In this document: positions 8,229 through 32,000 of the stretch, piece after piece
Position numbering within the stretch: position 1 is the stretch's first letter
Layout: the number at the start of each line of letters is the position of its first letter
Source: Xanthomonas campestris pv. campestris str. ATCC 33913
Lineage (GTDB): Bacteria; Pseudomonadota; Gammaproteobacteria; Xanthomonadales; Xanthomonadaceae
DNA length: 32,000 nucleotides
Assembly: GCF_000007145.1 (NCBI RefSeq)
Contig: NC_003902.1
Location: 3,506,497 to 3,538,496 of the forward strand
Direction: 5' to 3'
Notes under the pieces: model-generated
The model's database searches: none
The model's input: the letters and a program-made list of their open reading frames with translations, nothing else
Told to the model about the DNA's origin: nothing
Translations under genes and position numbers: made by a program

Positions 8229-8855
8229 TTAACCCGAGGTCGTATGCTGCGGCAGCAGGGGCGCTACGCACAACACCAGCATGAACACGGCGATGCAGCC
8301 ATCCAGTACGCGCCAGGCGCGCGGGTCACGGAACACCGGTTGCAGCAGACGCGCGCCATAGCCCAGCGCGCAGAACCAGGTTATGCTGGCAAGGCAGGCG
8401 CCGAGTGCAAATGCCCAGCGCAGGACGCCGGCATGGCGTGCGGAGAGGCTGCCCAGCAGCACCATGGTGTCCAGATACACGTGCGGGTTGAGGAAGGTGA
8501 AAGCCAGACAGGTCAGCGCCGCCTGCTGCCAGCGCTGATCCTCGCGTTCGGCCGGTGCCAGTGCGCCCTGCCCGCGCCAGGCGCGTTGGGCGGCCATCGC
8601 CCCGTACACCGCCAGGAACGCCGCACCCGCATAACGGAACACCTGCAGGATCTGCCGACAGTGCTGCACCACCGCGCCAATGCCGGCGACGCCGGCCAGG
8701 ATCAAGGTGATGTCACCGAAGGCGCAGATGGCCACGACCAGGCCGACATGCCGCCGCTGCAGCCCCTGGCGCAGGACGAAGGCGTTTTGCGCCCCGATGG
8801 CGATGATGAGCCCGGCGCTGGCAATGAAGCCGGAAAGTGCTGCGTTGAAGACCAT
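8229..8855 (-). CDS. argO: LysE/ArgO family basic amino acid exporter
   Basis: 208 aa from ATG 8855 (MVFNAALSG...). Carries motifs GAQNAFV and LNPHVYLDT, matching remembered E. coli ArgO. Divergent from a LysR/ArgP-type regulator. Confidence 0.85.
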   Translation of the reverse strand: MVFNAALSGFIASAGLIIAIGAQNAFVLRQGLQRRHVGLVVAICAFGDITLILAGVAGIGAVVQHCRQILQVFRYAGAAFLAVYGAMAAQRAWRGQGALAPAEREDQRWQQAALTCLAFTFLNPHVYLDTMVLLGSLSARHAGVLRWAFALGACLASITWFCALGYGARLLQPVFRDPRAWRVLDGCIAVFMLVLCVAPLLPQHTTSG

Positions 8856-15068: not shown

Positions 15069-15900
15069 GTCATCTGGCCCCGGAATTGGCGTGCACGATA
15101 GCAGGCTGATGTGAAAGCCTCATCATGAACCACGCCCGCCAGGCGGACTGATCCATTGCGCACGCCAGGCGCACCATTGGCATCGAATCGCGTGCCATGA
15201 CCTCGACCTATTGGCGACGTGCGAGCAATCGCGCGTCACTTCGATAGGGATCTGACCGGCTTGCATCACTTCCCGCGATGCAGCGCTTTTTTGAATATTG
15301 GGAATCGATCGGAACAACCAACCGCCGGAGCGAATGCGATTTTCCAGACGAGCGACCAAATTGCGTACTGTCCGGCCAACGCGGTAATGGGCGAGGCCGA
15401 TCAATATGACCCTCTCAAGGGAAATCCCCGAAAAACTCAATAAATTCCGACAGGGCGTCATTCCTTCATTACTGGTTTTAACGGCCGCCTTCTTTCTCTA
15501 TCAAAATGAAATACATTCGCCGCATCGATATTCAAGCGGCACTGGAAACGCACCAATCGCTCCCGCGCATTCCTTCCTCACGCTACGCAGGCATTGGACA
15601 CAATGGCTGTGCCAGATCCAGGATCAGGAAAGTTTCTACAGGGTCAGCTTTGTGTCACCCGAGCAGTGCGCGCAGATCTATGGCGAGGCCGTCGACACGC
15701 CTGAAGAATGAATCGAACGCGTCCAATTCTCAGCATCCTGAGATAGGCAATCAACCATTCGCCGCAGCATGCTGAATAACGCACATCGGTAATACACAAG
15801 AGGCTGCAAGCATCATGGGATCGTCTTATCCGCGCCGTAGCCTGCGCGATGACAACGCTCCACCAGCCGCATAACTCCATTTCCTATCAAAGCGACCCTT

Positions 15901-16218
15901 ATGAACATGCACGAGCCCCTGCGTCGAAAATCGATTCAAAAGACCATTATTGCTTCCGCGATTTTTCTCTTATTTGCGGGAACCAATTTGGCCGTCGCAA
16001 AGCCTTTGAAATTCGTCTATCAAACGACTCAGATGACCTCCTTCACCGCTGGCGGGCCCGGCCGGACCGAGATCTTTAGTCAGCAATGGGCTGATGGCGC
16101 AGCGCAATGCCGCGTTGCGTTTCCGCAAACCACCGCCGTGCGGCTGGGCCGGGTCAACGCACGTGCAATCAATGCCAGGACCTACGCCGTCACCGGCAAA
16201 TGGATCTGCAAAGGCTGA
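15901..16218 (+). CDS. small secreted hypothetical protein (105 aa)
   Basis: Signal-peptide-like N-terminus (KTIIASAIFLLFAGTNLAVA) and two Cys in the mature part. Sits in a lower-GC patch. Weak SD. Confidence 0.4.
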   Translation: MNMHEPLRRKSIQKTIIASAIFLLFAGTNLAVAKPLKFVYQTTQMTSFTAGGPGRTEIFSQQWADGAAQCRVAFPQTTAVRLGRVNARAINARTYAVTGKWICKG

Positions 16219-16499
16219 TCACATCGCCACCTGACACTGGCCCCGGGCAAGACCGGGGCAGCAGCTTCGGCCGGCGTCACCGACTGACGGCATCCAGCGC
16301 TCACCGCAGACCGCCGTGCTACGCGCGCGGCATCACGGTGGCAGCCGTGACAGCCGCGACGACTGTTGCCCCAGGGGATGCATGTCGGACACGAGCTGCC
16401 ATCTTGGCCACTCGTAGACGCCTCGGAACGCAGGCCCGCTCCCTGCAACGACCGACCGGGGCCGCGGAGTGCCAGCCAGAACGGCTCGTACAGACAAAC

Positions 16500-16523
16500 A
16501 AAAGGCGCCAAAGGCGCCTTTTT
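16500..16523. terminator. bidirectional hairpin terminator (AAAAGGCGCC-aaa-GGCGCCTTTT)
   Basis: Perfect stem flanked by an A-run and a T-run. On the minus strand it lies 15 nt downstream of the tRNA-Lys CCA end and is followed by TTTTGTTTG. Confidence 0.7.
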
Positions 16524-16538
16524 GCTGACTGAATTGAA

Positions 16539-16583
16539 TGGTGGGCCGTGATGGATTCGAACCATCGACCAAAAGATTAAAAG
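16539..16583 (-). tRNA. 3' fragment only of tRNA-Lys(UUU): anticodon loop to CCA, not a complete gene; probable att remnant
   Basis: The minus strand reads CTTTTAA-TCTTT-TGGTC-GATGG-TTCGAAT-CCATC-ACGGCCC-A-CCA. This matches anticodon loop/3' stem, variable loop, T arm and acceptor 3' strand. The sequence beyond 16583 cannot form the anticodon 5' stem, D arm or acceptor 5' strand. Confidence 0.8.
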
Positions 16584-16737
16584 GCAGAGAAAGTTAGCTT
16601 TCGGATCAATGATTTGCACCGGCTAATTTTTCCGGGGGCTATCCGTGAAACCGTTGGAGCTACGTTGCTAAGCACTTAATTTTTCCGCCACTCAGGCCTG
16701 CGGAAAGGGGCGCTTGCATAGATGCATTTCAGCCTTC

Positions 16738-17073
16738 TCAGCGACAGCTTTCCGCCGCCGCCGCGGCCTTCTTGAAGACGCCTCCCTGCACAACGCTACG
16801 GATCTCGACTCTGGAACCATCGGAGTCGGGAATGATGGTCACTGTTCCAAGTACTGCGGGATCAGCAACAAACGAATAAACCTGCGCCTCGCCATCTGGC
16901 CCGCCCGTCACTCTGGGCGCTATGTCCCGGAGCTTCGGCGCCAAACAGCGTTCTACCTCCTTTGGCGACCGATCGCTTTCGAGCGTGAACCACGGCGCCT
17001 GTGCTTGCCGTTCTGAATAAGAGGCGCATCCGCATAGCAGCGACACCAGAGCCATGTACGCGATCAGTTTCAT
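16738..17073 (-). CDS. prophage-borne lipoprotein (111 aa)
   Basis: ATG 17073 lies 6 nt after GGGAG. Signal peptide with lipobox (MKLIAYMALVSLLCGC). It is the first gene inside the att junction. Confidence 0.65.
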   Translation of the reverse strand: MKLIAYMALVSLLCGCASYSERQAQAPWFTLESDRSPKEVERCLAPKLRDIAPRVTGGPDGEAQVYSFVADPAVLGTVTIIPDSDGSRVEIRSVVQGGVFKKAAAAAESCR

Positions 17074-17357
17074 TTGCAACTCCCGTTTTTTTCATCTTAA
17101 CTGCGGGAGCTGTACGGCGTGAGTTCTAGCTGCAAGTGCCGGAAAGACGCTGCTCAAGCATCTCGCGGGGTGAGCGACCAAGGGTCCCGCGTCCGGCATG
17201 GGTAGATTGCCTAGAATCGCTTGTTTGCGAACTCAGGCAAGTGCTTGTCAAAGAGTGAGCATTCTCTGGTGTCGGTGTAAGCCATGCTTTCGGCTAAGGC
17301 CATCCATCGCTTGACGGCGTACGGCTGAATGGCGTCAGCAATTTTCTGGGTCGATTT

Positions 17358-17395
17358 TTAGTAATTTTGCTAACTTGCCTGGCCGTCTCTATCTA
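17358..17395 (+). promoter_or_regulatory. candidate SOS (LexA) box overlapping a sigma70-like promoter of umuDC
   Basis: TTAGTAATTTTGCTAA (17358-17373) fits the Xanthomonas/Xylella-type TTAG-N6-TACTA motif with one mismatch. TTGCTA-N17-TATCTA (17367-17395) lies about 30 nt upstream of the umuD ATG. Confidence 0.45.
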
Positions 17396-17423
17396 TGAGA
17401 CTTTGTGCCTCGAGAGTTGCGCC

Positions 17424-17903
17424 ATGTTGGCCCTACCTCCCCCTCACACCTACGCCCGCCTGCTGGGACCGGCCTGTCTCGATCCGGTCCCGCTCTGCCT
17501 GCCCGTCAGCGCGCTCCGGATCCAGCTCGGCTTCCCTTCACCCGCCGAGGATTTCCAAGACGACGAGCTCGATCTTAACCGGGTACTGATACGCAACCCG
17601 CCAGCCACTTTTCTATACAGGGCAGAGGGTTGGAGCATGATCTTGGCCGGCGTCTGCGATGGGGACATCCTGGTTGTGGACCGCTCGGTGCGTCCGATCC
17701 AGGGCGACATGGTGCTGGCCATCTGGGATGGCAATCAGCCGGTCTGCAAGATTCTTCAGGTCGCCGTCGACCACATCGAGCTCCATAGCCGAAGCCCACA
17801 TTGCGCGCCCATCGTGCTGGCGCCAGGCACAGAGGTTGAGGTCTTCGCCGTCGTGGGCGTAGTCCGCCAAGTCACCCGCGCGCATTCCCGCGCCGGCCGC
17901 TGA
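17424..17903 (+). CDS. umuD: UmuD-like S24 peptidase (translesion polymerase V accessory subunit)
   Basis: 159 aa from ATG 17424. GFPSPAEDF cleavage-region motif, Ser nucleophile in EGWSM and Lys in VCKIL. Its stop overlaps the umuC start (TGATG). Confidence 0.85.
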   Translation: MLALPPPHTYARLLGPACLDPVPLCLPVSALRIQLGFPSPAEDFQDDELDLNRVLIRNPPATFLYRAEGWSMILAGVCDGDILVVDRSVRPIQGDMVLAIWDGNQPVCKILQVAVDHIELHSRSPHCAPIVLAPGTEVEVFAVVGVVRQVTRAHSRAGR

Positions 17904-19189
17904 TGTTCGCGCTGATCGACGGCAATAACTTCTACGCTAGCTGCGAGCGCGTGTTCCAGCCCGAGCTGCGTGGCAGGCCGTTGGTCGTGCTCAGCAACAA
18001 CGATGGCTGCGCTATTGCTCGATCGGACGAGGCCAAAGCCCTAGGTGTCACGATGGGCCAGCCGATCCACAAGGTGCCACCGCAGATCCGTCGCCGGCTA
18101 GCGCTGCGCTCCGCAAATTTCGGTCTCTACGGCGACATCGCTTCTCGCATTGGCGTCATCCTGCGTCAGGCCGCGCCACGCGTGGAGGTGTATTCGATCG
18201 ACGAGTCGTTCCTCGACCTGGCCGGCATCCGCGATTGCCGGCAGCTGGCGGTCGACCTGCGCGAGCGAGTTCACCAATGGACGGGCATCCCCAACTGCAT
18301 TGGCATCGCGCCGACCAAGACCTTGGCCAAGCTGGCCAACCGGGTCGCCAAGGATGCAGCGCGTAAGCCGGGCAGCTACCCAGCTAGTCTGGCCGGCGTC
18401 TGTGACCTGGCTGCGCTCAGCGCCAGTGAGCTCGATGCGGTGCTGCGAGCCACGGCGGTTGGCGACCTCTGGGGCGTTGGCAGGCGCTGGGGCGCGAGGC
18501 TGCAGGCACGCGGCGTCTTTACGGCAGCCGATCTGCGAGACGCCGCTGCAGACGACTTGCTAGCGGAGTTCGGTGTGGTCATGGCGCGCACGCAACGGGA
18601 GTTGCAGGGCCATGCATGCCTGCAGCTGGAGGAAGTCGAGCCCGACCGTCAGCAGATCATGGTCAGCCGGTCGTTCGGGACCTGGGTGACCGATCCACAA
18701 GATATGGCGGAGGCGCTGGCAACTTTTGCCATGCGCGCCACCGAGAAGCTGCGCGCACGCGGGCTGACCACATGCGCCATTGGCATCTTTGCCGAGACGG
18801 ATTCGTTCAAGCCCGGTGTGCCGCAGCACAACCCATCACGCACCGCGCCACTTGCCTCGGCTACATCCGACAGCCGCGTGGTGCTCACGGTTGTGCGCCG
18901 GCTGCTCCAGGGCTTCATGCGCGATGGCTTCACCTACAAGAAGGCCGGCGTGTGCCTAATGGATCTCGCCGCGCCCGAGGATCTGCAGGGCGACCTCTTC
19001 ACCCCGGCACGCATAGGCGACGACAAGCTGATGAGCACCCTGGATGCCATCAACCGGCGGTTCGGTCGCGGCACGGCCGGGCTGGGTGCAAGCGGCTGGC
19101 AGAAGTCCCCCGAATGGGCATCGCGGCAAGATCTGCTATCGGGCCGCTTCACCACATCGCTAGCTGACCTCCCTCGCGCCTCCTGCTAG
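17903..19189 (+). CDS. umuC: UmuC-like Y-family DNA polymerase
   Basis: 428 aa. N-terminus MFALIDGNNFYASCERVF, plus LSNNDGC and YSIDESFLDL, typical of UmuC/ImpB. Confidence 0.9.
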   Translation: MFALIDGNNFYASCERVFQPELRGRPLVVLSNNDGCAIARSDEAKALGVTMGQPIHKVPPQIRRRLALRSANFGLYGDIASRIGVILRQAAPRVEVYSIDESFLDLAGIRDCRQLAVDLRERVHQWTGIPNCIGIAPTKTLAKLANRVAKDAARKPGSYPASLAGVCDLAALSASELDAVLRATAVGDLWGVGRRWGARLQARGVFTAADLRDAAADDLLAEFGVVMARTQRELQGHACLQLEEVEPDRQQIMVSRSFGTWVTDPQDMAEALATFAMRATEKLRARGLTTCAIGIFAETDSFKPGVPQHNPSRTAPLASATSDSRVVLTVVRRLLQGFMRDGFTYKKAGVCLMDLAAPEDLQGDLFTPARIGDDKLMSTLDAINRRFGRGTAGLGASGWQKSPEWASRQDLLSGRFTTSLADLPRASC

Positions 19190-19361
19190 CTGGCAGCCCT
19201 CGCGGGCAGCAGTACACGATCTGCGGATGACTTCTTGCAACTTTCAGCCATGGAGCGGCGTCGACACGCGGCCGAAGTTGTGAGCAAGCAATAACGAGCT
19301 GAACCATGAAGCGCCTAATCGCAGCCCTATATGGCAATTTTCGATGTGCCCATCGGGCCAA

Positions 19362-19635
19362 GGTAATCCAGGTAATCAAACTCTGAAGAAGCAAAATTAT
19401 TTATATTTTTCAATAATTTAGAGGATTTTTCAAAAGGTAATAAAAAGGTGATGAGGGGGTAATCTGATTACCTTTCCAGCAGGTAATCTTGAATCCTATA
19501 AAAACCCTTATAGATCAATGGCATTACCTTTCAGGATCCGCCGGGTTACCAAAAATCACCCTGCAAGGTAATCCAGGCTTTGCTATATCATTCAATGACT
19601 TGGGAGCACCTCAAAGGCAAGAATTACCGATTACC
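19362..19635. repeat. array of about 11 GGTAATC/GATTACC heptamers flanking a very AT-rich stretch
   Basis: Exact copies lie at 19362, 19371, 19458, 19482 and 19567 (+) and at 19466 and 19629 (-). One-mismatch copies lie at 19436, 19522, 19544 and 19622. There is a perfect palindrome GGTAATC-T-GATTACC at 19458-19472. The 13-mer AAGGTAATCCAGG is repeated at 19360 and 19565. Confidence 0.8.
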
Positions 19636-19741
19636 CGATCCCGGTGGTCACATGAAAAATTTGGCGGTCTGTGGCCATCGCGCGAACGCGAGCAAGGGCG
19701 CGCTGCTGCCCCGTGACGGCGCGGAATTCCGCAGGGTCTAG
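19595..19741 (+). CDS. short HNH-endonuclease-like ORF (48 aa from ATG; possibly degenerate)
   Basis: Not in the ORF track (<60 aa). Translation is MTWEHLKGKNYRLPDPGGHMKNLAVCGHRANASKGALLPRDGAEFRRV. It shows the pattern EH...GG...NL..C....N..KG, reminiscent of the HNH core. No good SD, and it overlaps the heptamer array. Confidence 0.25.
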   Translation: MTWEHLKGKNYRLPDPGGHMKNLAVCGHRANASKGALLPRDGAEFRRV

Positions 19742-19830
19742 CAAGGGACCAGAACCCCCCATGACGCTAGGACTGGCGCCCGTTTCGGGGGCATGCAGCA
19801 GTGCATCGAAATGGCCCTATGAAGACCGCA

Positions 19831-19849
19831 GGCGTGGCGGGGCGACGAT
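19831..19849 (+). other. candidate cos (cohesive end) site of the P2-family prophage
   Basis: GGCGTGGCGGGGCGACGAT followed by TGCGCGC. As I remember them, the P2 left end is GGCGAGGCGGGGAAAGCAC-TGCGCGC and the 186 end is GGCGTGGCGGGGAAAGCAT. The first 12 nt are identical to 186, and the orientation points toward Q as in P2. Confidence 0.5.
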
Positions 19850-19955
19850 TGCGCGCGCGCAGCAGCCTGAGTGCCTCCTCCCGGCTGTCGCAGCCGGCTA
19901 GACTGGAATGGGAGACGCTTGCAGGCGATACTTCCCTCATGGAGAGAAAGAGCCA

Positions 19956-21134
19956 ATGAAGGGCGAACAAGTTGTAGGTGTACAACCCTCAGTGATGCGT
20001 TGGGCACGCGAAAGCATCGGCATGTCGATAGCCGATGTCGCAGCACGCCTTAAGAAAGGTGAGGGGGAAGTTGCAGCATGGGAATCCGGGGCGGAGGCCC
20101 CCACCTACCCACAGCTAGAAAGGCTCGCGTACGAGGTCTATAAACGGCCGCTAGCTGTGTTCTTTCTCCCGGCGCCGCCCGCTGAAGCTTCTCCTCGTCA
20201 AGAGTTCCGTACGCTCCCAGCGGAAGAGCTCGCAAATTTGTCCCGCGATACCTACCTACATCTTCGAAAAGCCCGCGCGTATCAGCTAGGCCTCGAAGAG
20301 CTGTACGCAGGCGTAAACCCTGCTGCAATAAAGGCGTGGCGTGCTGTTCAACTCAGCACTGGCGATGACGTCGTACGCAAAGCAGCCGCTATCCGCCTTA
20401 TGTTGGGCATCACCTCAGAGGTCCAGGCTGGCTGGGGAACTGATGATGAGGCGCTACGCTCATGGAGGGCAGCCGTCGAACGCGTCGGCCCATTCGTTTT
20501 CAAAGAAAGCTTTAAGCAGGAAACCATCTCTGGATTTTGCCTAAGAGATAGCGAATTCCCTGTTATTTACCTCAACAACAGCACCACGAAGACCCGACAG
20601 ATCTTCTCGCTGTTGCATGAGTTCGCGCATGTGCTATTCGATGTCAACGGAATTTCTAAGTTCGACATTAGCTATGCGAATGAGCTCCCTCAACGCGAAC
20701 GTGCCATCGAAATTTTTTGCAATGCGATCGCGGCCGAGGTTTTAATACCGGGTGCAGAATTTGATGCAGCCACGACTGACCTCGCAATCATTGCGGATTA
20801 TGCGCCTGACATATATTTCTCTCGACTCGCCCGACGCTTTGGGGTGAGTCGGGAAGTGGTGCTGCGTCGCTTTCTGGATAGAGGACGTGCTACGCGTCAG
20901 TTCTATGAGGAAAAAGCTGACGAATGGAATCAGCAACGTCAAAAAGAATCTAGTGGCGGCGGGAGTTGGTACGCAAATCAAGGCTCATACTTGAGCGATG
21001 GGATGCTCAGAGAGGTGTTTGGCCGCCGTCTACGCGGCCAAATTTCGCCAGAAAAGGCTGCTGATTACCTTGGAGTAAAGCCTGGCACATTGCCTGGTCT
21101 GGAGGAATTGGTCCTGCATAGGAAGCGCAACTGA
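19956..21134 (+). CDS. XRE-family HTH fused to an ImmA/IrrE (COG2856, M78-like) zinc metallopeptidase domain
   Basis: 392 aa from ATG 19956, with GGAGA upstream. N-terminal HTH (IGMSIADVAARLKKGEGEVAAWESG), HExxH motif HEFAH (nt 20616-20630) and a downstream AAEVLIP. GC is lower than the flanks (hand counts of 55% and 45% in two 60-nt samples). Confidence 0.8.
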   Translation: MKGEQVVGVQPSVMRWARESIGMSIADVAARLKKGEGEVAAWESGAEAPTYPQLERLAYEVYKRPLAVFFLPAPPAEASPRQEFRTLPAEELANLSRDTYLHLRKARAYQLGLEELYAGVNPAAIKAWRAVQLSTGDDVVRKAAAIRLMLGITSEVQAGWGTDDEALRSWRAAVERVGPFVFKESFKQETISGFCLRDSEFPVIYLNNSTTKTRQIFSLLHEFAHVLFDVNGISKFDISYANELPQRERAIEIFCNAIAAEVLIPGAEFDAATTDLAIIADYAPDIYFSRLARRFGVSREVVLRRFLDRGRATRQFYEEKADEWNQQRQKESSGGGSWYANQGSYLSDGMLREVFGRRLRGQISPEKAADYLGVKPGTLPGLEELVLHRKRN

Positions 21135-21601
21135 TGTACGTGTTCGACACTGGGCCGTTTAGCCGTCTTAAGCATTACTATCCCGCTGTTTTTCATAGCT
21201 TCTGGGCACACATGGATGCCCTCGTTCACGGTGGCTACCTTCTATCCACGCGGGAGGTTAAGCGTGAGCTAGACAACGGCGAGCCGAATGCGGTGGTTAG
21301 TGCCTGGATAGGTCAGCATGCCGGACTTTTCAGCATGCCTAGTGCAGGAGAGATGCAGCTGGTTGCGCAGATACTGGCGATACCGCACTTTCAGTCGATC
21401 ATCGGCGAACGTCAGCGCCTGAAAGGAACCCCAGTCGCCGATCCATTTGTGATTGCTGCCGCTCAAGTAAGAGGCTTCGCTGTAGTCACGACCGAGGTGT
21501 ACAAGCCACAGGCGGCAAAAGTTCCCATCATCTGCCAACACTTCAATGTGCGATGTATTGACCTTGAGCAGTTCATGGCCGAACAGAAGATGACCTACTA
21601 G
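21134..21601 (+). CDS. DUF4411-like PIN-fold protein (putative nuclease/toxin partner)
   Basis: 155 aa. Its start overlaps the upstream stop (TGATG). The pattern MYVFD...FW...S..EVKREL...VADPFVIAAA...VVTTEV...KVPIICQHF..RCI matches my memory of DUF4411/PIN-like proteins, including the conserved acidic residues. Confidence 0.7.
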   Translation: MYVFDTGPFSRLKHYYPAVFHSFWAHMDALVHGGYLLSTREVKRELDNGEPNAVVSAWIGQHAGLFSMPSAGEMQLVAQILAIPHFQSIIGERQRLKGTPVADPFVIAAAQVRGFAVVTTEVYKPQAAKVPIICQHFNVRCIDLEQFMAEQKMTY

Positions 21602-21632
21602 GACGGCATCGCGTCCCAGTAGGTGAATTTTC

Positions 21633-22337
21633 CTAAGCCAATCGGGTCCGTGCGACATCTGAGTAGTGACTGGTCAACTCGACCCCAGTCCATCCGTACC
21701 CTTCAAGCTCAGCAGCGACCAGAGTCGTACCGCTGCCAGCAAACGGGTCAAGGATCCGGCCACCTGCTTCACAGATCCGCACCAGCTGCCTCATCAACTC
21801 GGTAGGTTTGCCAGTCAGGTGATGTTTGTCTGCCTTGCGCACCGACTCGCGGATAACACCAGGCAGCACCGGCGCACGACGATCCAGCGGCATGTTGCCC
21901 TTGCTGCCCCACACGATGTATTCGGCCTGGTTGCGGAACCTGCCCAACTGCGGCCGCACGCCCTCGGTCTTGTCCCAGACAGTGATGCCGCGCCAGGTGA
22001 AGCCGGCGATCTGCAGCGCGTCAGTGGTCAGCGGCAGCTGCCGCCAGTCGGTAAACAGCAGCACCGGCGCGCCGTCCTTGAGCACGCGCGCGCACTCGGA
22101 TAACCACAGGTGCATCCACTTCAAGTGTGAGCGTTGGTCGCGCTCGTCGCCGACAAAGTCGGCGTGCAGTTGTGCGCCGCCGCCCTGGACGTATTTCTGC
22201 GACGGTGGCTTGGCCCGCGCGGCCGCATGCAGGCCACCGCTGGCATACGGCGGATCAGTGATCAGCGCGTCGAACGAATTCGCTTCGAGCGTGGGCAGGA
22301 TGGTCAGGGCGTCGCCCTGCAGGAGCTGGTTTTTCAT
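21633..22337 (-). CDS. DNA methyltransferase, N6-adenine/N4-cytosine type (beta class)
   Basis: 234 aa. Motif IV DPPY (LITDPPYASGG) lies N-terminal to motif I (LDPFAGSGTT). No cognate nuclease gene is adjacent. Confidence 0.85.
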   Translation of the reverse strand: MKNQLLQGDALTILPTLEANSFDALITDPPYASGGLHAAARAKPPSQKYVQGGGAQLHADFVGDERDQRSHLKWMHLWLSECARVLKDGAPVLLFTDWRQLPLTTDALQIAGFTWRGITVWDKTEGVRPQLGRFRNQAEYIVWGSKGNMPLDRRAPVLPGVIRESVRKADKHHLTGKPTELMRQLVRICEAGGRILDPFAGSGTTLVAAELEGYGWTGVELTSHYSDVARTRLA

Positions 22338-22500
22338 GGTGAGAGCCTTCTTGGATTCGCTCGCGGCGATCGGAGGTGAGGCTCTCGGCCTTCAGGTGAT
22401 TGAGCGTGCCGCAACGCGGGCACTTGATCTGGATTTCATCGAAGGCGCCGGCCTTGCACAGCAGGCGGGCGCATTCGCCACAACGGAGGTTCTTGAGCAT
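22255..22500 (-). CDS. Mu Com-like zinc-finger protein
   Basis: N-terminus MLKNLRCGECARLLCKAGAFDEIQIKCPRCGTLNH matches the Com pattern (CxxC...CPRC). The ORF overlaps the methyltransferase start by 83 nt in another frame. The functional C-terminus is uncertain. Confidence 0.65.
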   Translation of the reverse strand: MLKNLRCGECARLLCKAGAFDEIQIKCPRCGTLNHLKAESLTSDRRERIQEGSHHEKPAPAGRRPDHPAHARSEFVRRADH

Positions 22501-22525: not shown

Positions 22526-23557
22526 TTACGCGGCCGCTGGCGGCGCGTACGGGGTGAACGAGATCACCTCATCGCCCACCCAGTCGTTGATCTTCAGCAT
22601 GCGCGCCTGCAGCGGTTCGAGTTCGTTGGCGGCCCAGACGGCAGCGGCCTCACGGATCGAGCCGAAGCCGCCTGCGTTCTGCGGCACGATGCCCATGAGT
22701 TGCGGCGGGATGCGCAGCGCTGCCAGCATGTCGTCGCGGGTGATGCCCTTGATGCCGCTGAACTCATCCTTGGCCGCCACTTCGCTGACCGGGATCAGCT
22801 TCAGCCCGTCCTTGTTGCCGCCTGGCGAGTACAAGAACAGGTTGCGGAAGTTGCCCGGCCCCTTGGCGCCCTTCATGGCGTTGCGCAACGCGTCGACGTC
22901 TTCCTGGCTCTGCTGCGGGTCGGTCAGGTACAAGATGAAACCGGCGTGCGAGCCATTGTTGTAGTACTTGCGGCGAAACAGCGTGGCCGACTCGTTGAGC
23001 AGCGCCGACTGCATCGCCGGCATCCATTCGGGCAGACCGTAGAGTTCCTGATCGACATCGGCTTCGCGCAGCTGGAACACGCTGCCCGGCTCGAACACGT
23101 GTTCGTCGTGCCAGGTGCGCACTTGGAAGTACTCGCCCTCGGTGATGCCACGCCGCATGTACTTCGACAGCGGCGCAGTCAGCGACAGCGCACCGCCCAT
23201 GCGATTGCGGCGGCGCTCAAGGTAGCCATTGCCCAGCGTGATCCAGTCCAGCGACAGCTGCTCGAAGGCCTCGCGCGTCAGCAGCCGGTGCGGCTTGAAG
23301 GTGCGCGCCAGCATGTTGCGCTTGAAGATCAGCCCGGACTGCAGAAACGGATTGCTGCGCGTGGTCTTGGACAGGCCATCCAGCGCCACCGGCGGCTCGT
23401 ACCAGCGCCCGTTCTGCCAGCACTCCAGATAGTCCAACACGCCGCGCCCATCGAGCACCGGCGTCGGATCGCCAAAGGTGAACGCCTCGCTGCGTGCGGG
23501 CACTGCTGGCGCTGCAGGCGCTGCAGGCGCGGTGGCGGGCAGCTGGTCGGTCAACAT
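22526..23557 (-). CDS. Q: phage portal protein (P2 gpQ family)
   Basis: 343 aa from ATG 23557 (MLTDQLPAT...), similar in length to P2 gpQ. Its start overlaps the terminase stop (TGATG). The upstream part of track ORF 22526..24496 is a spurious extension. Confidence 0.9.
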   Translation of the reverse strand: MLTDQLPATAPAAPAAPAVPARSEAFTFGDPTPVLDGRGVLDYLECWQNGRWYEPPVALDGLSKTTRSNPFLQSGLIFKRNMLARTFKPHRLLTREAFEQLSLDWITLGNGYLERRRNRMGGALSLTAPLSKYMRRGITEGEYFQVRTWHDEHVFEPGSVFQLREADVDQELYGLPEWMPAMQSALLNESATLFRRKYYNNGSHAGFILYLTDPQQSQEDVDALRNAMKGAKGPGNFRNLFLYSPGGNKDGLKLIPVSEVAAKDEFSGIKGITRDDMLAALRIPPQLMGIVPQNAGGFGSIREAAAVWAANELEPLQARMLKINDWVGDEVISFTPYAPPAAA

Positions 23558-25320
23558 CAAGAGATCTCCATGAAGCCGGAGTTGCGCGCGGTGCGTCCTT
23601 CCAGCGGTTCGTTCTGCAGCGCGTGGAACAGTGCCCACGCCAGGTCCGCATGGCCGGTCTCTTCCGAGCGGCCAGCGGTGAAGGTGGACTGGCGGCCGCT
23701 GGCCGTCATGGTCTTGCGGATAGCCATCAACGACTGCGCCACGTCGGTCCAGCCGGCGTCGAACTCTAGCCGCCCGTTGTGGATCACATCGAACGCCTTG
23801 AGCACCAGGCGGGTCTTGACCTCGGGCGAGTAGCTGAAGGTGACCAGATTCGGGAAGAACTGCTTCACCAGCTGCGCCACGCCACTGCCCATGCCTGTGG
23901 TGTCGATGCCGATGTAGGTCACCCAGTAGCGGCGCGTGATGCGCTCGATCTCGGCCGCCTGCTTGGCGAAGTCCATGCCCCGGAACTGGATCCGCTCCAG
24001 CAGCCGGAACTTGCCGCCGGGTTGCTGCGGTGGTGCCAGCACGACCAGACCGGCGGTGTCGCCCGTCTCGGCCGGGTCGTAGCCGATCCACACCGCGCGA
24101 TCGCCGTAGGGGCGCGCGGCGAACGGCTTGTAGTCCTGGCCCCACTCGACCCAGCTGTCGACCATGCACGGCTGCAGCATCGCCAGCGGGAAGATGCTGG
24201 CGCCGTCGTCGACGAACTCGCACATCAACAAGTTGGCGAACGCGTCCGGGCTGTATTCCTCGCGCAGCTCGTCGATGTCGAACAGGTCGCAGCCACGGCG
24301 CTGGGCGTCGAGGATGTTGACGATCTGCCGCCAGGCGCGGTCCTGGCAGCGGCGCCCGCCGGCCAGTGCATCGTGCGAGACATCGACCTGGATCCGCTGC
24401 GCGGCCGGCTTGCCCTTGTTGCGGCGCTCGCCGGTCCAGAACGTGTAGGCCTCGTGCGCCATGCTCGATGGCGTACTGAAGTAGGTCTTGCGCCACTTCT
24501 TGTGCATCGCCATGCCGCTGGCGACCTTGTTCAATTCGTTGAACCCGTAGGTCCAGAAGAACTCATCGAAATAGAAATTGCCGTGGTAGCCCTGCGCGGT
24601 GCGCGCATTGGTGCCCAGGAAGAACAGCTCGGCGCCGTTAGGGAACACGATGCTATCGCCGCCGGAGAGCGTCTCGTCGATCGTCTCGCGCACGAACTGC
24701 TGCATGTAGCCGCGAAACAGATGCGCCTGCGCCTTGGAGGCGCTCAGGAAAATCTGATTGCGCCCGGTGGTGAGTGCATCGATCAGCGCCTCACGGGCGA
24801 AGTAAAACGTTGCACCGACCTGGCGCGACTTGAGGATGATGCGGGTGCGCTCATTGCTGGCCCGGTACCAGTCGCGCTGGTAATCGAAGCAGCCGTCGAT
24901 GAACGCCGTGGTCAGCTGCTCGACCTGTTCCTCAGTGAAGTCGTTGCGCTTGGGCTTCTTCTTCGGCGCGGCATTGCGATTCGCCACAGCCGGATTCAGA
25001 TCGGCCTCGTTGCCGCCGCCTTGGTAGCGCTGGATGCGCGCCTGGCGCTCCAACTGCCGATGCAGCAGATCGATTTCTTTGAAGTCGCCGCCGGACTTTT
25101 CCGGCTTCATGATCAGCACGACCAGGCGCGCTTCCAGTGCACCACCGATGCGCTCAACATTGTCTGCGCGATCCCACTCGTCACGCGACTTCCAGCTGTG
25201 TACAGTCTTCTCGTTCTCGCCGATGGCCTGCGCAATTTCGGTCACGCGCCATCCCATCCAGTACAGGAACTTGGCCTGTCTGCGGGTATCCATCGGGAGC
25301 TGGGTGGCAACGCTTTGCAT
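23557..25320 (-). CDS. P: terminase large (ATPase) subunit (P2 gpP family)
   Basis: About 587 aa. The N-terminus RRQAKFLYWMGWRVTEIAQAIGENEKTVHSWKSRDEWD parallels P2 gpP. The start is ambiguous (GTG 25341, ATG 25320 or ATG 25293). Confidence 0.9.
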   Translation of the reverse strand: MQSVATQLPMDTRRQAKFLYWMGWRVTEIAQAIGENEKTVHSWKSRDEWDRADNVERIGGALEARLVVLIMKPEKSGGDFKEIDLLHRQLERQARIQRYQGGGNEADLNPAVANRNAAPKKKPKRNDFTEEQVEQLTTAFIDGCFDYQRDWYRASNERTRIILKSRQVGATFYFAREALIDALTTGRNQIFLSASKAQAHLFRGYMQQFVRETIDETLSGGDSIVFPNGAELFFLGTNARTAQGYHGNFYFDEFFWTYGFNELNKVASGMAMHKKWRKTYFSTPSSMAHEAYTFWTGERRNKGKPAAQRIQVDVSHDALAGGRRCQDRAWRQIVNILDAQRRGCDLFDIDELREEYSPDAFANLLMCEFVDDGASIFPLAMLQPCMVDSWVEWGQDYKPFAARPYGDRAVWIGYDPAETGDTAGLVVLAPPQQPGGKFRLLERIQFRGMDFAKQAAEIERITRRYWVTYIGIDTTGMGSGVAQLVKQFFPNLVTFSYSPEVKTRLVLKAFDVIHNGRLEFDAGWTDVAQSLMAIRKTMTASGRQSTFTAGRSEETGHADLAWALFHALQNEPLEGRTARNSGFMEIS

Positions 25321-25462
25321 GCCGACCAGGGTGCAGCCCACCTCTTAATCCCGACAGTTCAATGACGCGTAATCGCCTGGTTTACACGGTGATTGCGTTG
25401 CTGCGTTGTGCGTCGCGTTTGACCATGGGTCATCGCAAACGCATCCAGCGCAGAGGACACCC

Positions 25463-31485: not shown

Positions 31486-31524
31486 TCGGGGTGCATACTT
31501 CACCACTCACGCAAAGGAATAGAA

Positions 31525-31737
31525 ATGAGTCTCGAATTCAAGACGGCGATGATCTACGGGGATCTAAGTTCAGATAGCGCCTCCGAGCAATATCCGGAAG
31601 TCACGGCTTGCACAGATTGTATCGAAAAAGATAGCAAGCGCGCCGAGGATCAAGAAATCGTTCAAATCACTGGCGATTACGACTCTTCGTATGGTGAGGA
31701 ATGCCATTTTTGCGATACACCCGCCGAGCCAGATTAA
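31525..31737 (+). CDS. small, highly acidic CxxC...CxxC (zinc-ribbon-like) protein, function unknown
   Basis: 70 aa. AAGGAA lies 5 nt before the ATG. Cys at 29, 32, 60 and 63. By my count 18 D/E versus 4 K/R. Sits in the AT-rich segment. Confidence 0.6.
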   Translation: MSLEFKTAMIYGDLSSDSASEQYPEVTACTDCIEKDSKRAEDQEIVQITGDYDSSYGEECHFCDTPAEPD

Positions 31738-31771
31738 TTCATTTTCAATAACTTAATGAAATTGAATTAAA

Positions 31772-32000
31772 ATGCCAAGCAAAGAAGAGACCCCGCAACC
31801 TAAACAAGGCGCGCATAATGCGGTGCCTTGGTATAGACAAAAAATAACTTTCTTGTCATTGCTTGCCCCGGTTTTTATTTTCCTCGGCTGGATCCTCCTA
31901 AGTGGACCAACTGCGCTTCAGAACTCGCGAATACTTCCAGATGAAGTAAATAAAACATGGCATGCTTTCAGTAGCTGGCTTCACGAGGATGAGGAATGGA
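31772..32000 (+). CDS. 5' part of an unknown membrane-protein gene, truncated by the window edge
   Basis: ATG 31772, open to position 32000 (MPSKEETPQPKQGAHNAVPWYRQKITFLSLLAPVFIFLGWILLSG...). One predicted TM helix. AT-rich. Not in the ORF track because it has no stop. Confidence 0.45.
   Translation, partial: MPSKEETPQPKQGAHNAVPWYRQKITFLSLLAPVFIFLGWILLSGPTALQNSRILPDEVNKTWHAFSSWLHEDEEW

Follow-up and report, generated by a model that had tools for sequence, protein, structure and literature searches.

Within a 32,000-nt stretch of the genome of Xanthomonas campestris pv. campestris str. ATCC 33913 (the window, numbered from its first letter), two adjoining genes lie in a prophage next to its cos site: gene 1 (19956-21134, + strand), which encodes 392 aa, and gene 2 (21134-21601, + strand), which encodes 155 aa. 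Sequence comparison identifies this pair as a type II toxin-antitoxin (TA) module of the VapBC52 kind, in which gene 1 would be a VapB52-type antitoxin and gene 2 a VapC52-type toxin with a DUF4411 PIN domain. The pair is cargo, acquired by horizontal transfer, and it occupies the variable slot near cos in a P2-family prophage that resembles the phages phiCTX and Smp131. The domain, cos and other matches that define the locus are far beyond chance.

The two genes and their products

At the junction of the two genes, AACTGATGTAC, one base is common to the TGA stop of gene 1 and the ATG start of gene 2 (TGATG), and the two genes are, to judge from this overlap, translationally coupled. An initial annotation of this DNA had already described a two-gene operon with this stop/start overlap, which is confirmed by the open reading frame (ORF) calls and by the junction sequence. 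Gene 1 has an alternative in-frame ATG upstream, at 19908. Its homologues, which are 390-392 aa long and have the consensus N-terminus MKxEPVxGIQP, fit a start at 19956 and not at 19908; because these lengths and N-termini agree, and because a purine-rich ribosome-binding region (GGAGAGAAAGAG, 19941-19952, + strand) stands ahead of the ATG at 19956, we set the start there.

The gene 1 protein is built of three parts that are co-linear with VapB52, all encoded on the + strand: an N-terminal XRE-type helix-turn-helix (HTH) domain (residues ~9-80, nt 19980-20195), an M78 zinc peptidase (residues 175-306, nt 20478-20873), and a helical C-terminal domain that follows a flexible GGG linker (residues ~335-392, nt 20958-21131). 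Pfam assigns residues 15-58 to HTH_3 (1.2e-7) and residues 175-306 to Peptidase_M78 (2.1e-26), with about 86 residues beyond the M78 domain, in line with the earlier description of an XRE HTH fused to an M78/ImmA-IrrE peptidase with a HEFAH motif and a long C-terminal extension. The HEFAH motif is found at residues 221-225 (nt 20616-20630, + strand), the predicted third zinc ligand is E252 (nt 20709-20711, + strand), with which the zinc site of the M78 domain is complete in sequence, and an FR motif, F84-R85 (nt 20205-20210, + strand), is located in a linker of low model confidence. Residues H221, E222, H225, E252, F84 and R85 are invariant across 120 close homologues and VapB52. In a diverse set of 132 full-length gene 1 representatives, taken from clusters at 50% identity, they are present in 129, 131, 132, 131, 118 and 127 members, respectively. 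The AlphaFold2 (AF2) model of the protein has a mean predicted local distance difference test (pLDDT) score of 84.4, with low spots at residues 71-90, which hold the FR linker, and 332-339, which hold the GGG linker. A Foldseek search with this model retrieved IrrE, PprI bound to single-stranded DNA (ssDNA), CapP and PrpR, relatives that are also named in the paper on VapBC52 (Singh et al., NAR 2026; PMC13273310), while the sole NCBIfam match was the sub-threshold 'spr1629 antitoxin'.

The gene 2 protein is spanned over its entire length by DUF4411 (PF14367, 1.4e-38), and its sequence is that of a PIN nuclease of the DUF4411 family in which none of the acidic active-site residues is missing. 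This hidden Markov model match bears out the initial assignment of gene 2 as a PIN-like protein with conserved acidic residues. The residues in question, D5 (21146-21148), E41 (21254-21256), E45 (21266-21268), D103 (21440-21442) and E121 (21494-21496), all on the + strand, are invariant in 120 homologues and align with those of VapC52, including its D6. The AF2 model (pLDDT 87.7) has VapC PIN toxins as its top Foldseek matches; the PDB set used for Foldseek ran to 2026-04-08 and was without 9VZY, so that for both proteins these searches confirmed only the general PIN and IrrE/CapP folds. No match to gene 2 was returned by NCBIfam, nor by any PADLOC model at E<=0.01. The protein is 100% identical to an X. 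campestris pv. campestris protein, and the next relative is 63% identical. It carries P8 at a position where the family has S (115/120), and its T120 adjoins the putatively catalytic E121. An HTH-M78 peptidase and a DUF4411 PIN protein encoded in one operon support the TA-type architecture that had been proposed for the locus.

Two further signals flank the coding regions. A perfect inverted repeat of 7 bp, CCGGCTG-TCG-CAGCCGG (19881-19897, + strand), can be read from the sequence in the interval from cos to gene 1 and is a candidate operator for the gene 1 HTH domain. At the other end, a hairpin with a 13-bp stem (ACCTACTAGGACGGCATCGCGTCCCAGTAGGT, 21593-21624), followed on the + strand by GAATTTT, overlaps the last codons of gene 2 and lies between gene 2 and a convergent methylase gene; it is probably a bidirectional terminator.

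Relationship to VapBC52 and distribution of the pair

Both proteins match the chains of 9VZY and 9VZZ, which correspond to VapB52/VapC52 (Rv2515c/Rv2514c) of Mycobacterium tuberculosis (Singh et al., NAR 2026; PMC13273310, data-availability section). Gene 1 aligns with 9vzy_A (393 aa, 'HTH cro/C1-type domain-containing protein') from residue 9 to 385 of the query and from 2 to 386 of the chain, with a phmmer E-value of 7.7e-45 and 34% identity (BLASTP). Gene 2 aligns with the 'DUF4411 family protein' chains 9vzy_D (2.5e-11) and 9vzz_A (1.6e-10), at 31% identity. The two systems thus have the same two families in the same antitoxin-first order, with full-length co-linear alignments (34% and 31%). 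The likeness extends to the three-part antitoxin, with its HTH N-terminal domain, M78 domain with HEXXH plus Glu, and helical C-terminal domain preceded by a GGG-W/Y motif; also kept are the PIN acidic residues and the FR motif where the N-terminal domain meets the peptidase. At 392 aa, gene 1 is of the length expected for an antitoxin of this type (~390-415 aa) and co-linear with VapB52, and its tight coupling to gene 2, antitoxin first, is repeated in the same order and adjacency at the 85 loci described below. The differences are a Ser in place of the cysteine-switch residue (see below), the 23-residue disordered N-terminus of VapB52, which is missing from the gene 1 protein, and the setting, a mycobacterial chromosome in one case and a P2-family prophage beside cos, in a gammaproteobacterium, in the other. 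We consider it very probable that the pair is a member of the VapBC52 family.

The properties of VapBC52 are described in PMC13273310. The complex has a 1:2 antitoxin:toxin stoichiometry, in which the HTH N-terminal domain sits on the exterior of the PIN dimer, whose active site is blocked by the C-terminal domain. VapB52 cleaves itself in a ssDNA- and HEXXH-dependent manner that removes the N-terminal domain, with the conserved 'FR' motif as the proposed cleavage site and a CapP-like 'cysteine switch' as the proposed gate. VapC52 cuts tRNAs in the anticodon or variable loop, and the system adds to copper tolerance and virulence of M. tuberculosis. M. smegmatis was protected from phage D29 by over-expressed VapC52 alone, but not by toxin plus antitoxin (PMC13273310).

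The initial annotation held that the DUF4411 pairing had no defined function or trigger. This is outdated: a study of 2019 validated Rv2515c/Rv2514c as TA (PMC6504116), the structure and biochemistry of the pair were described under the name VapBC52 in 2026, and both proteins of the present pair match 9VZY/9VZZ. The arrangement of an HTH-DUF955 gene with a DUF4411 gene had also been predicted computationally (Makarova et al. 2009, PMC2701414; Matelska et al. 2017, PMC5499597), and the latter study lists a 'three-component' TA of non-actinobacterial phyla, where a fused HTH-COG2856 gene is followed by DUF4411.1. The gene order predicted there is exactly that of the pair described here, whereas those papers are purely computational and do not include cos-proximal prophage carriage.

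Other known architectures fit less well. The PIN fold of gene 2 is that of canonical VapBC toxins, but a 392-aa HTH-peptidase is not a VapB of 8-13 kDa with an RHH, AbrB or PHD domain. The M78 fold with an associated HTH is shared with CapP/CapH, a regulator of the cyclic-oligonucleotide-based antiphage signalling system (CBASS), with IrrE/PprI-DdrO and with ImmA/ImmR. There the peptidase responds to ssDNA or DNA damage by cutting an XRE-type HTH domain, as the gene 1 protein would too. The protease and the substrate of those systems, however, are two different proteins, and their effect is to de-repress transcription, whereas a VapB52-like protein joins both in one chain and would act by toxin release. 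In the pair, HTH and peptidase form a single ORF whose sole partner is the PIN gene, and we rejected a regulator pair of the ImmA/ImmR, CapP/CapH or IrrE/DdrO type.

The linkage of the two genes is strict. A search with the toxin profile gave 80 loci in 80 species plus 5 on viral contigs, 85 loci in all, and in 85/85 the DUF4411 start is preceded, on the same strand and at a distance of <=33 nt, by the end of a full-length gene 1 homologue. The reverse look-up, from three gene 1 homologues, found a DUF4411 gene downstream of them in every place. The 80 hosts include Proteobacteria, Acidobacteriota, Planctomycetota, Chloroflexota, a cyanobacterium, an archaeal metagenome-assembled genome and others, and the family amounts to ~1,079 clusters at 50% identity (E<=1e-30). 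Among the 85 loci, the pair is mostly found without phage genes around it.

Across 38 species whose neighbourhoods were compared, a type III Mod methylase stands beside the pair in 9, and 7-10 of 125 flanking ORFs scanned contain SNF2, DEAD or ResIII helicase domains. The other neighbours include DUF2130, YhcG nuclease, AAA_13, Schlafen, KilA-N and integrases. Of the 125 flanking ORFs, 8-9 match SNF2 helicase models of the DrmD/BrxH-like kind, which, with the Mod methylases, suggests a recurrent association of the pair with a restriction- or DISARM-like cluster. Among 50,697 phage records, megablast with positions 19300-22400 gave no match, and tblastn with each protein gave just 1 and 3 distant matches, all of them on unannotated gut contigs; with so few matches, the pair is not a common phage gene.

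The cos-proximal slot of the prophage

The cos site, AGGCGTGGCGGGGCGACGATT (19830-19850), lies 105 nt upstream of gene 1. It has 19/21 bases in common with the annotated cosL of phiCTX, and also coincides with the first bases of the Smp131 record plus the left flank. The closest sequenced phages are phiCTX and the Stenotrophomonas phage Smp131, at ~72-74% nucleotide identity. On the far side of gene 2, the slot is bounded by a backbone gene for an N6/N4 DNA methyltransferase (21633-22337, - strand), next to which is that for a Com-type zinc-ribbon translational regulator (22255-22500, - strand), both conserved in Smp131. They are followed by the portal gene Q (22526-23560, - strand; PHROGs phrog_68, 1.9e-147) and the terminase gene P (23557-25341, - strand; PHROGs 1.7e-137), and beyond P by the late genes O, N, M, L and more, on the + strand. 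The slot between cos and com-methylase-Q is occupied by the pair in this prophage, by ctx in phiCTX, and by three small unrelated ORFs in Smp131. The placement of the pair as cargo in the gap between cos and the portal gene, at a position like that of ctx in phiCTX, was part of the initial annotation and holds, with cos on one side and Q beyond the other.

The composition of the two genes sets them apart from the backbone. Gene 1 has a GC content of 0.539 and gene 2 one of 0.536, and their third-position GC (GC3) is 0.53 and 0.60, respectively, whereas the phage genes Q, P, O, N and M have GC of 0.63-0.68 and GC3 of 0.83-0.87. The lower GC of the pair relative to its phage neighbours (0.54 versus 0.63-0.68) had been noticed at the outset, as had its strand, opposite to that of Q-P, and the figures and the ORF map agree with both.

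The region between gpA and gpQ, close to cos, is described as a defence hotspot of P2-like phages in PMC9122126 and PMC13586616. The cargo of this hotspot includes old and tin in P2, ctx in phiCTX, and many defence systems in the P2-like phages of E. coli (Rousset et al. 2022). A term search of these two papers, PMC9122126 and PMC13586616, found no mention of the present TA family among the hotspot systems. The slot resembles the hotspot in its position from cos to Q, in content that varies among related phages, in low GC, and in transcription independent of the late operons; it differs in that backbone com and methylase genes intervene here between the cargo and Q.

Related contigs of the Xanthomonadaceae provide a view of how the slot is used. 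The P2-like slot also holds the pair in contig L092, where the toxin is 93% identical, and in X. bromi (L012); a 24-mer at cos is identical in L012, L092 and a third contig, L093. In L093 the backbone to the right of ~21800 is 93-97% identical in nucleotides (Q 97% and P 98% in amino acids), but the pair is only ~60% identical (67% and 59% in amino acids), which is an allele replacement in the same slot of a near-identical phage. In the more distant P2-like contig L094, the pair stands on the other side of the cos repeats. Away from this slot, the pair lies inside an integrase island in S. lactitubi, adjoins HipBA and SymE in another Xanthomonas, and forms an isolated insertion among housekeeping genes in X. 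albilineans.

A further context is an element of ~10 kb in S. maltophilia (L103-L106, 1-10646), with the order int-alpA-ogr/delta-Toprim/DUF927 primase-portal homologue and the pair at its end. The portal homologue is 69% identical to Q of the window and the pair is 69% identical as well. A Smp131-type cos is located at 8779, ~220 nt upstream of gene 1, so that the order and orientation of cos and gene 1 are alike in the window and in this element. The element showed no capsid or tail genes and looks like a P4-like satellite with its own portal gene and with the pair in a cos-adjacent slot.

Two other links between the pair and its carrier were set aside. Gene 1 could be taken for the immunity repressor of the phage, and allele swapping would fit immunity regions too; we rejected this reading on the grounds that Smp131 and phiCTX have no gene 1 and their regulators are elsewhere (in Smp131, between D and the primase gene), and that the pair is self-contained in many non-phage loci. 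A tie to the adjacent phage methylase came into question through the Mod methylases that neighbour the pair in 9 of 38 species elsewhere, but the adjacency in this prophage was judged coincidental, as Smp131 has com-methylase without the pair. The com gene overlaps the start of the methyltransferase gene, as it does in Smp131 (gp05, 'translational regulator', and gp04), an arrangement that resembles the Mu com/mom-style control of a DNA-modification gene.

Just ahead of cos, towards umuC, GGTAAT/ATTACC motifs form a dense AT-rich array that includes nested inverted repeats (19336-19661). It corresponds to the annotated R-repeat/integration host factor (IHF) region in front of cos in phiCTX; Smp131 has the same array before its cos, and in L092, L093 and L094 the motifs number 10-11 per 400 nt. 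It is presumably related to packaging or integration. Further out are umuD (17367-17903) and umuC (17903-19189), where Smp131 has, between attP and cos, a DUF4238 gene and one for an SOS-response-associated peptidase. All contigs on which the exact UmuC was found also carry the pair; the UmuC of L093, where the pair is diverged, is 94% identical. The umuDC genes are probably prophage cargo too, though their GC of 0.63-0.66 looks native. Between umuD and a host HWE histidine kinase gene, positions 15100-17300 have a lower GC (0.51-0.59), with three small ORFs (15406-15711, 15901-16218 and 16738-17079) without family matches, and may hold the prophage end (attL); ARAGORN found no tRNA genes in the window that would mark the attachment site of the prophage. 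Directly after the tail gene S, where the window ends on the right, GC falls to 0.45 (31501-32000), and this stretch may be a further cargo gene within the late region.

Proposed function and alternatives

By analogy with VapBC52, one antitoxin would hold a toxin dimer, its HTH N-terminal domain gripping the exterior and its C-terminal domain plugging the active site, and the gene 1 HTH probably represses its own operon as well. The peptidase would be switched on by a nucleic-acid cue arising from phage replication or DNA damage; in VapB52, CapP and PprI the activating cue is ssDNA (PMC13273310). The active peptidase would then cut its own chain at the F84-R85 linker and release the N-terminal domain, after which the freed PIN toxin would cleave tRNA or other RNA, so that translation stops and the infection is aborted or growth arrested. 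The context of the locus suggests that in a lysogen the module would shield prophage and host alike from rival phages, and the pair is most likely a prophage-carried abortive-infection or exclusion module. Taken as a whole, from VapBC52-type action to the exclusion of competing phages, this chain is on balance the probable reading of the locus.

Several points weigh against this chain. Its weakest links are the trigger, as the cysteine switch is missing, the identity of the RNA that is cut, and the capacity of the intact module for defence. Residue C229 of VapB52, the proposed cysteine switch and fourth zinc ligand, aligns with Ser234 of the gene 1 protein, and the whole loop 226-251 is free of Cys, so that the trigger and gating of the gene 1 peptidase may, judging from the alignment, differ from those of VapB52. 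At this switch column, the 132 diverse relatives have D in 47, T in 41, S in 12, F in 9, C in 7 and E in 6; with Cys in only 7/132, a cysteine gate is exceptional and not family-wide. The RNA targets of PIN toxins vary, and tRNA cleavage by gene 2, which is carried over from VapC52, is a guess. Gene 2 also has T120 and I132 where the consensus of the family is E (117/120) and N (118/120), respectively. Defence by the intact module is unproven for the VapBC52 family, and identity to VapBC52 is just 31-34%. A consensus scan of the + strand upstream of gene 1 found no sigma-70 promoter. Finally, the pair is rare among mobile elements, being present in 1/50,697 sequenced phage records and 11/72,556 plasmids.

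A more specific version of the proposal can be put forward tentatively, as a possibility that we hold rather doubtful: the pair would be a cos-linked mobile abortive-infection system, shuttled by recombination at the cos flanks between the P2-like helpers and P4-like satellites of the Xanthomonadaceae, with a non-cysteine infection gate and possibly a cue other than free ssDNA. The gate proposed here would correspond to the Ser/Thr or Asp/Glu that most of the family has at the switch position.

The same TA architecture, which is bona fide, could instead serve a purely selfish addiction or stabilisation module, in which losing the prophage or the cos-proximal segment would be lethal or costly and which would have no anti-phage role. 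The isolated insertion in X. albilineans and the position beside the TA genes HipBA and SymE elsewhere are what such a module would show, and the intact VapBC52 gave no protection from D29 (PMC13273310). We nevertheless regard this reading as unlikely, as the locus is in a documented defence hotspot, its alleles are swapped between near-identical phages, adjacency to cos recurs in a phage and a satellite-like element, and about a quarter of the other loci are beside type III restriction-like genes. A built-in nucleic-acid-sensing protease would also exceed the needs of stabilisation.

A role in the phage life cycle or in stress is improbable. Here gene 1 would be a damage-sensing protease-repressor like IrrE, ImmA or CapP, acting for example on prophage induction or umuDC, and the PIN protein would shut off the host or process RNA in lytic growth. 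The resemblance of the M78 domain to the DNA-damage sensors IrrE, PprI and CapP, the SOS genes umuDC across cos, and the involvement of VapBC52 in copper tolerance and virulence of M. tuberculosis (PMC13273310) are consistent with it. Smp131 and phiCTX, however, complete their cycles without the pair and have their regulators elsewhere, and the pair is self-contained and mobile, as seen in its linkage at 85/85 loci, mostly without phage genes. Moreover, a single chain contains both the substrate (HTH and FR site) and the protease, as VapB52 does, and there is no separate repressor.

We give very little credence to a simple RosmerTA system (RmrT/RmrA; Millman et al. 2022, Ernits et al. 2023), the likeness proposed initially, since the general resemblance stands, in a large antitoxin with HTH and Zn-peptidase and a swappable toxin, but membership is not supported. 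RosmerTA is defined by a Zn-peptidase/HTH antitoxin with variable toxins, some of its systems are phage-encoded and defensive, such as that of Gordonia phage Kita (Millman et al. 2022; Ernits et al. 2023), and NetFlax notes PIN-like partners of the ImmA antitoxin node. In PADLOC, 11 RmrA models match gene 1 (2.4e-14 to 1.3e-3), but the matches are weak (16-51 bits) and mostly of partial cover, and the capP model scores similarly (46 bits). Neither an RmrT model nor any other PADLOC model matches gene 2, the validated Kita RmrT depolarises the membrane and is not a PIN nuclease, and VapBC52, a far closer characterised relative, aligns over the full length.

What this locus adds to the known family is modest: the cos-proximal phage and satellite-like context, the allele swap in a near-identical backbone, and the missing cysteine gate. 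The sole studied member of the VapBC52 family is that of M. tuberculosis, whose anti-phage activity was seen only on over-expression of the toxin. The present locus puts a member of the family in a recognised phage defence hotspot, and the hotspot, the allele swap and the satellite copy next to cos together form the context expected of a real weapon in inter-phage competition. Xanthomonas lysogens offer a tractable Gram-negative system for defence by the intact module. For annotation, VapBC52-like or DUF4411-PIN TA is preferable to 'Zn peptidase' and 'hypothetical protein'. A 'cysteine switch' of the kind proposed cannot be how the VapBC52 family as a whole is gated. If the reading of a shuttled, cos-linked system is true, the question arises of how the carrier phage avoids triggering the module during its own replication and cos cutting, and the locus would provide the first natural-context evidence for phage defence by intact VapBC52-type modules.

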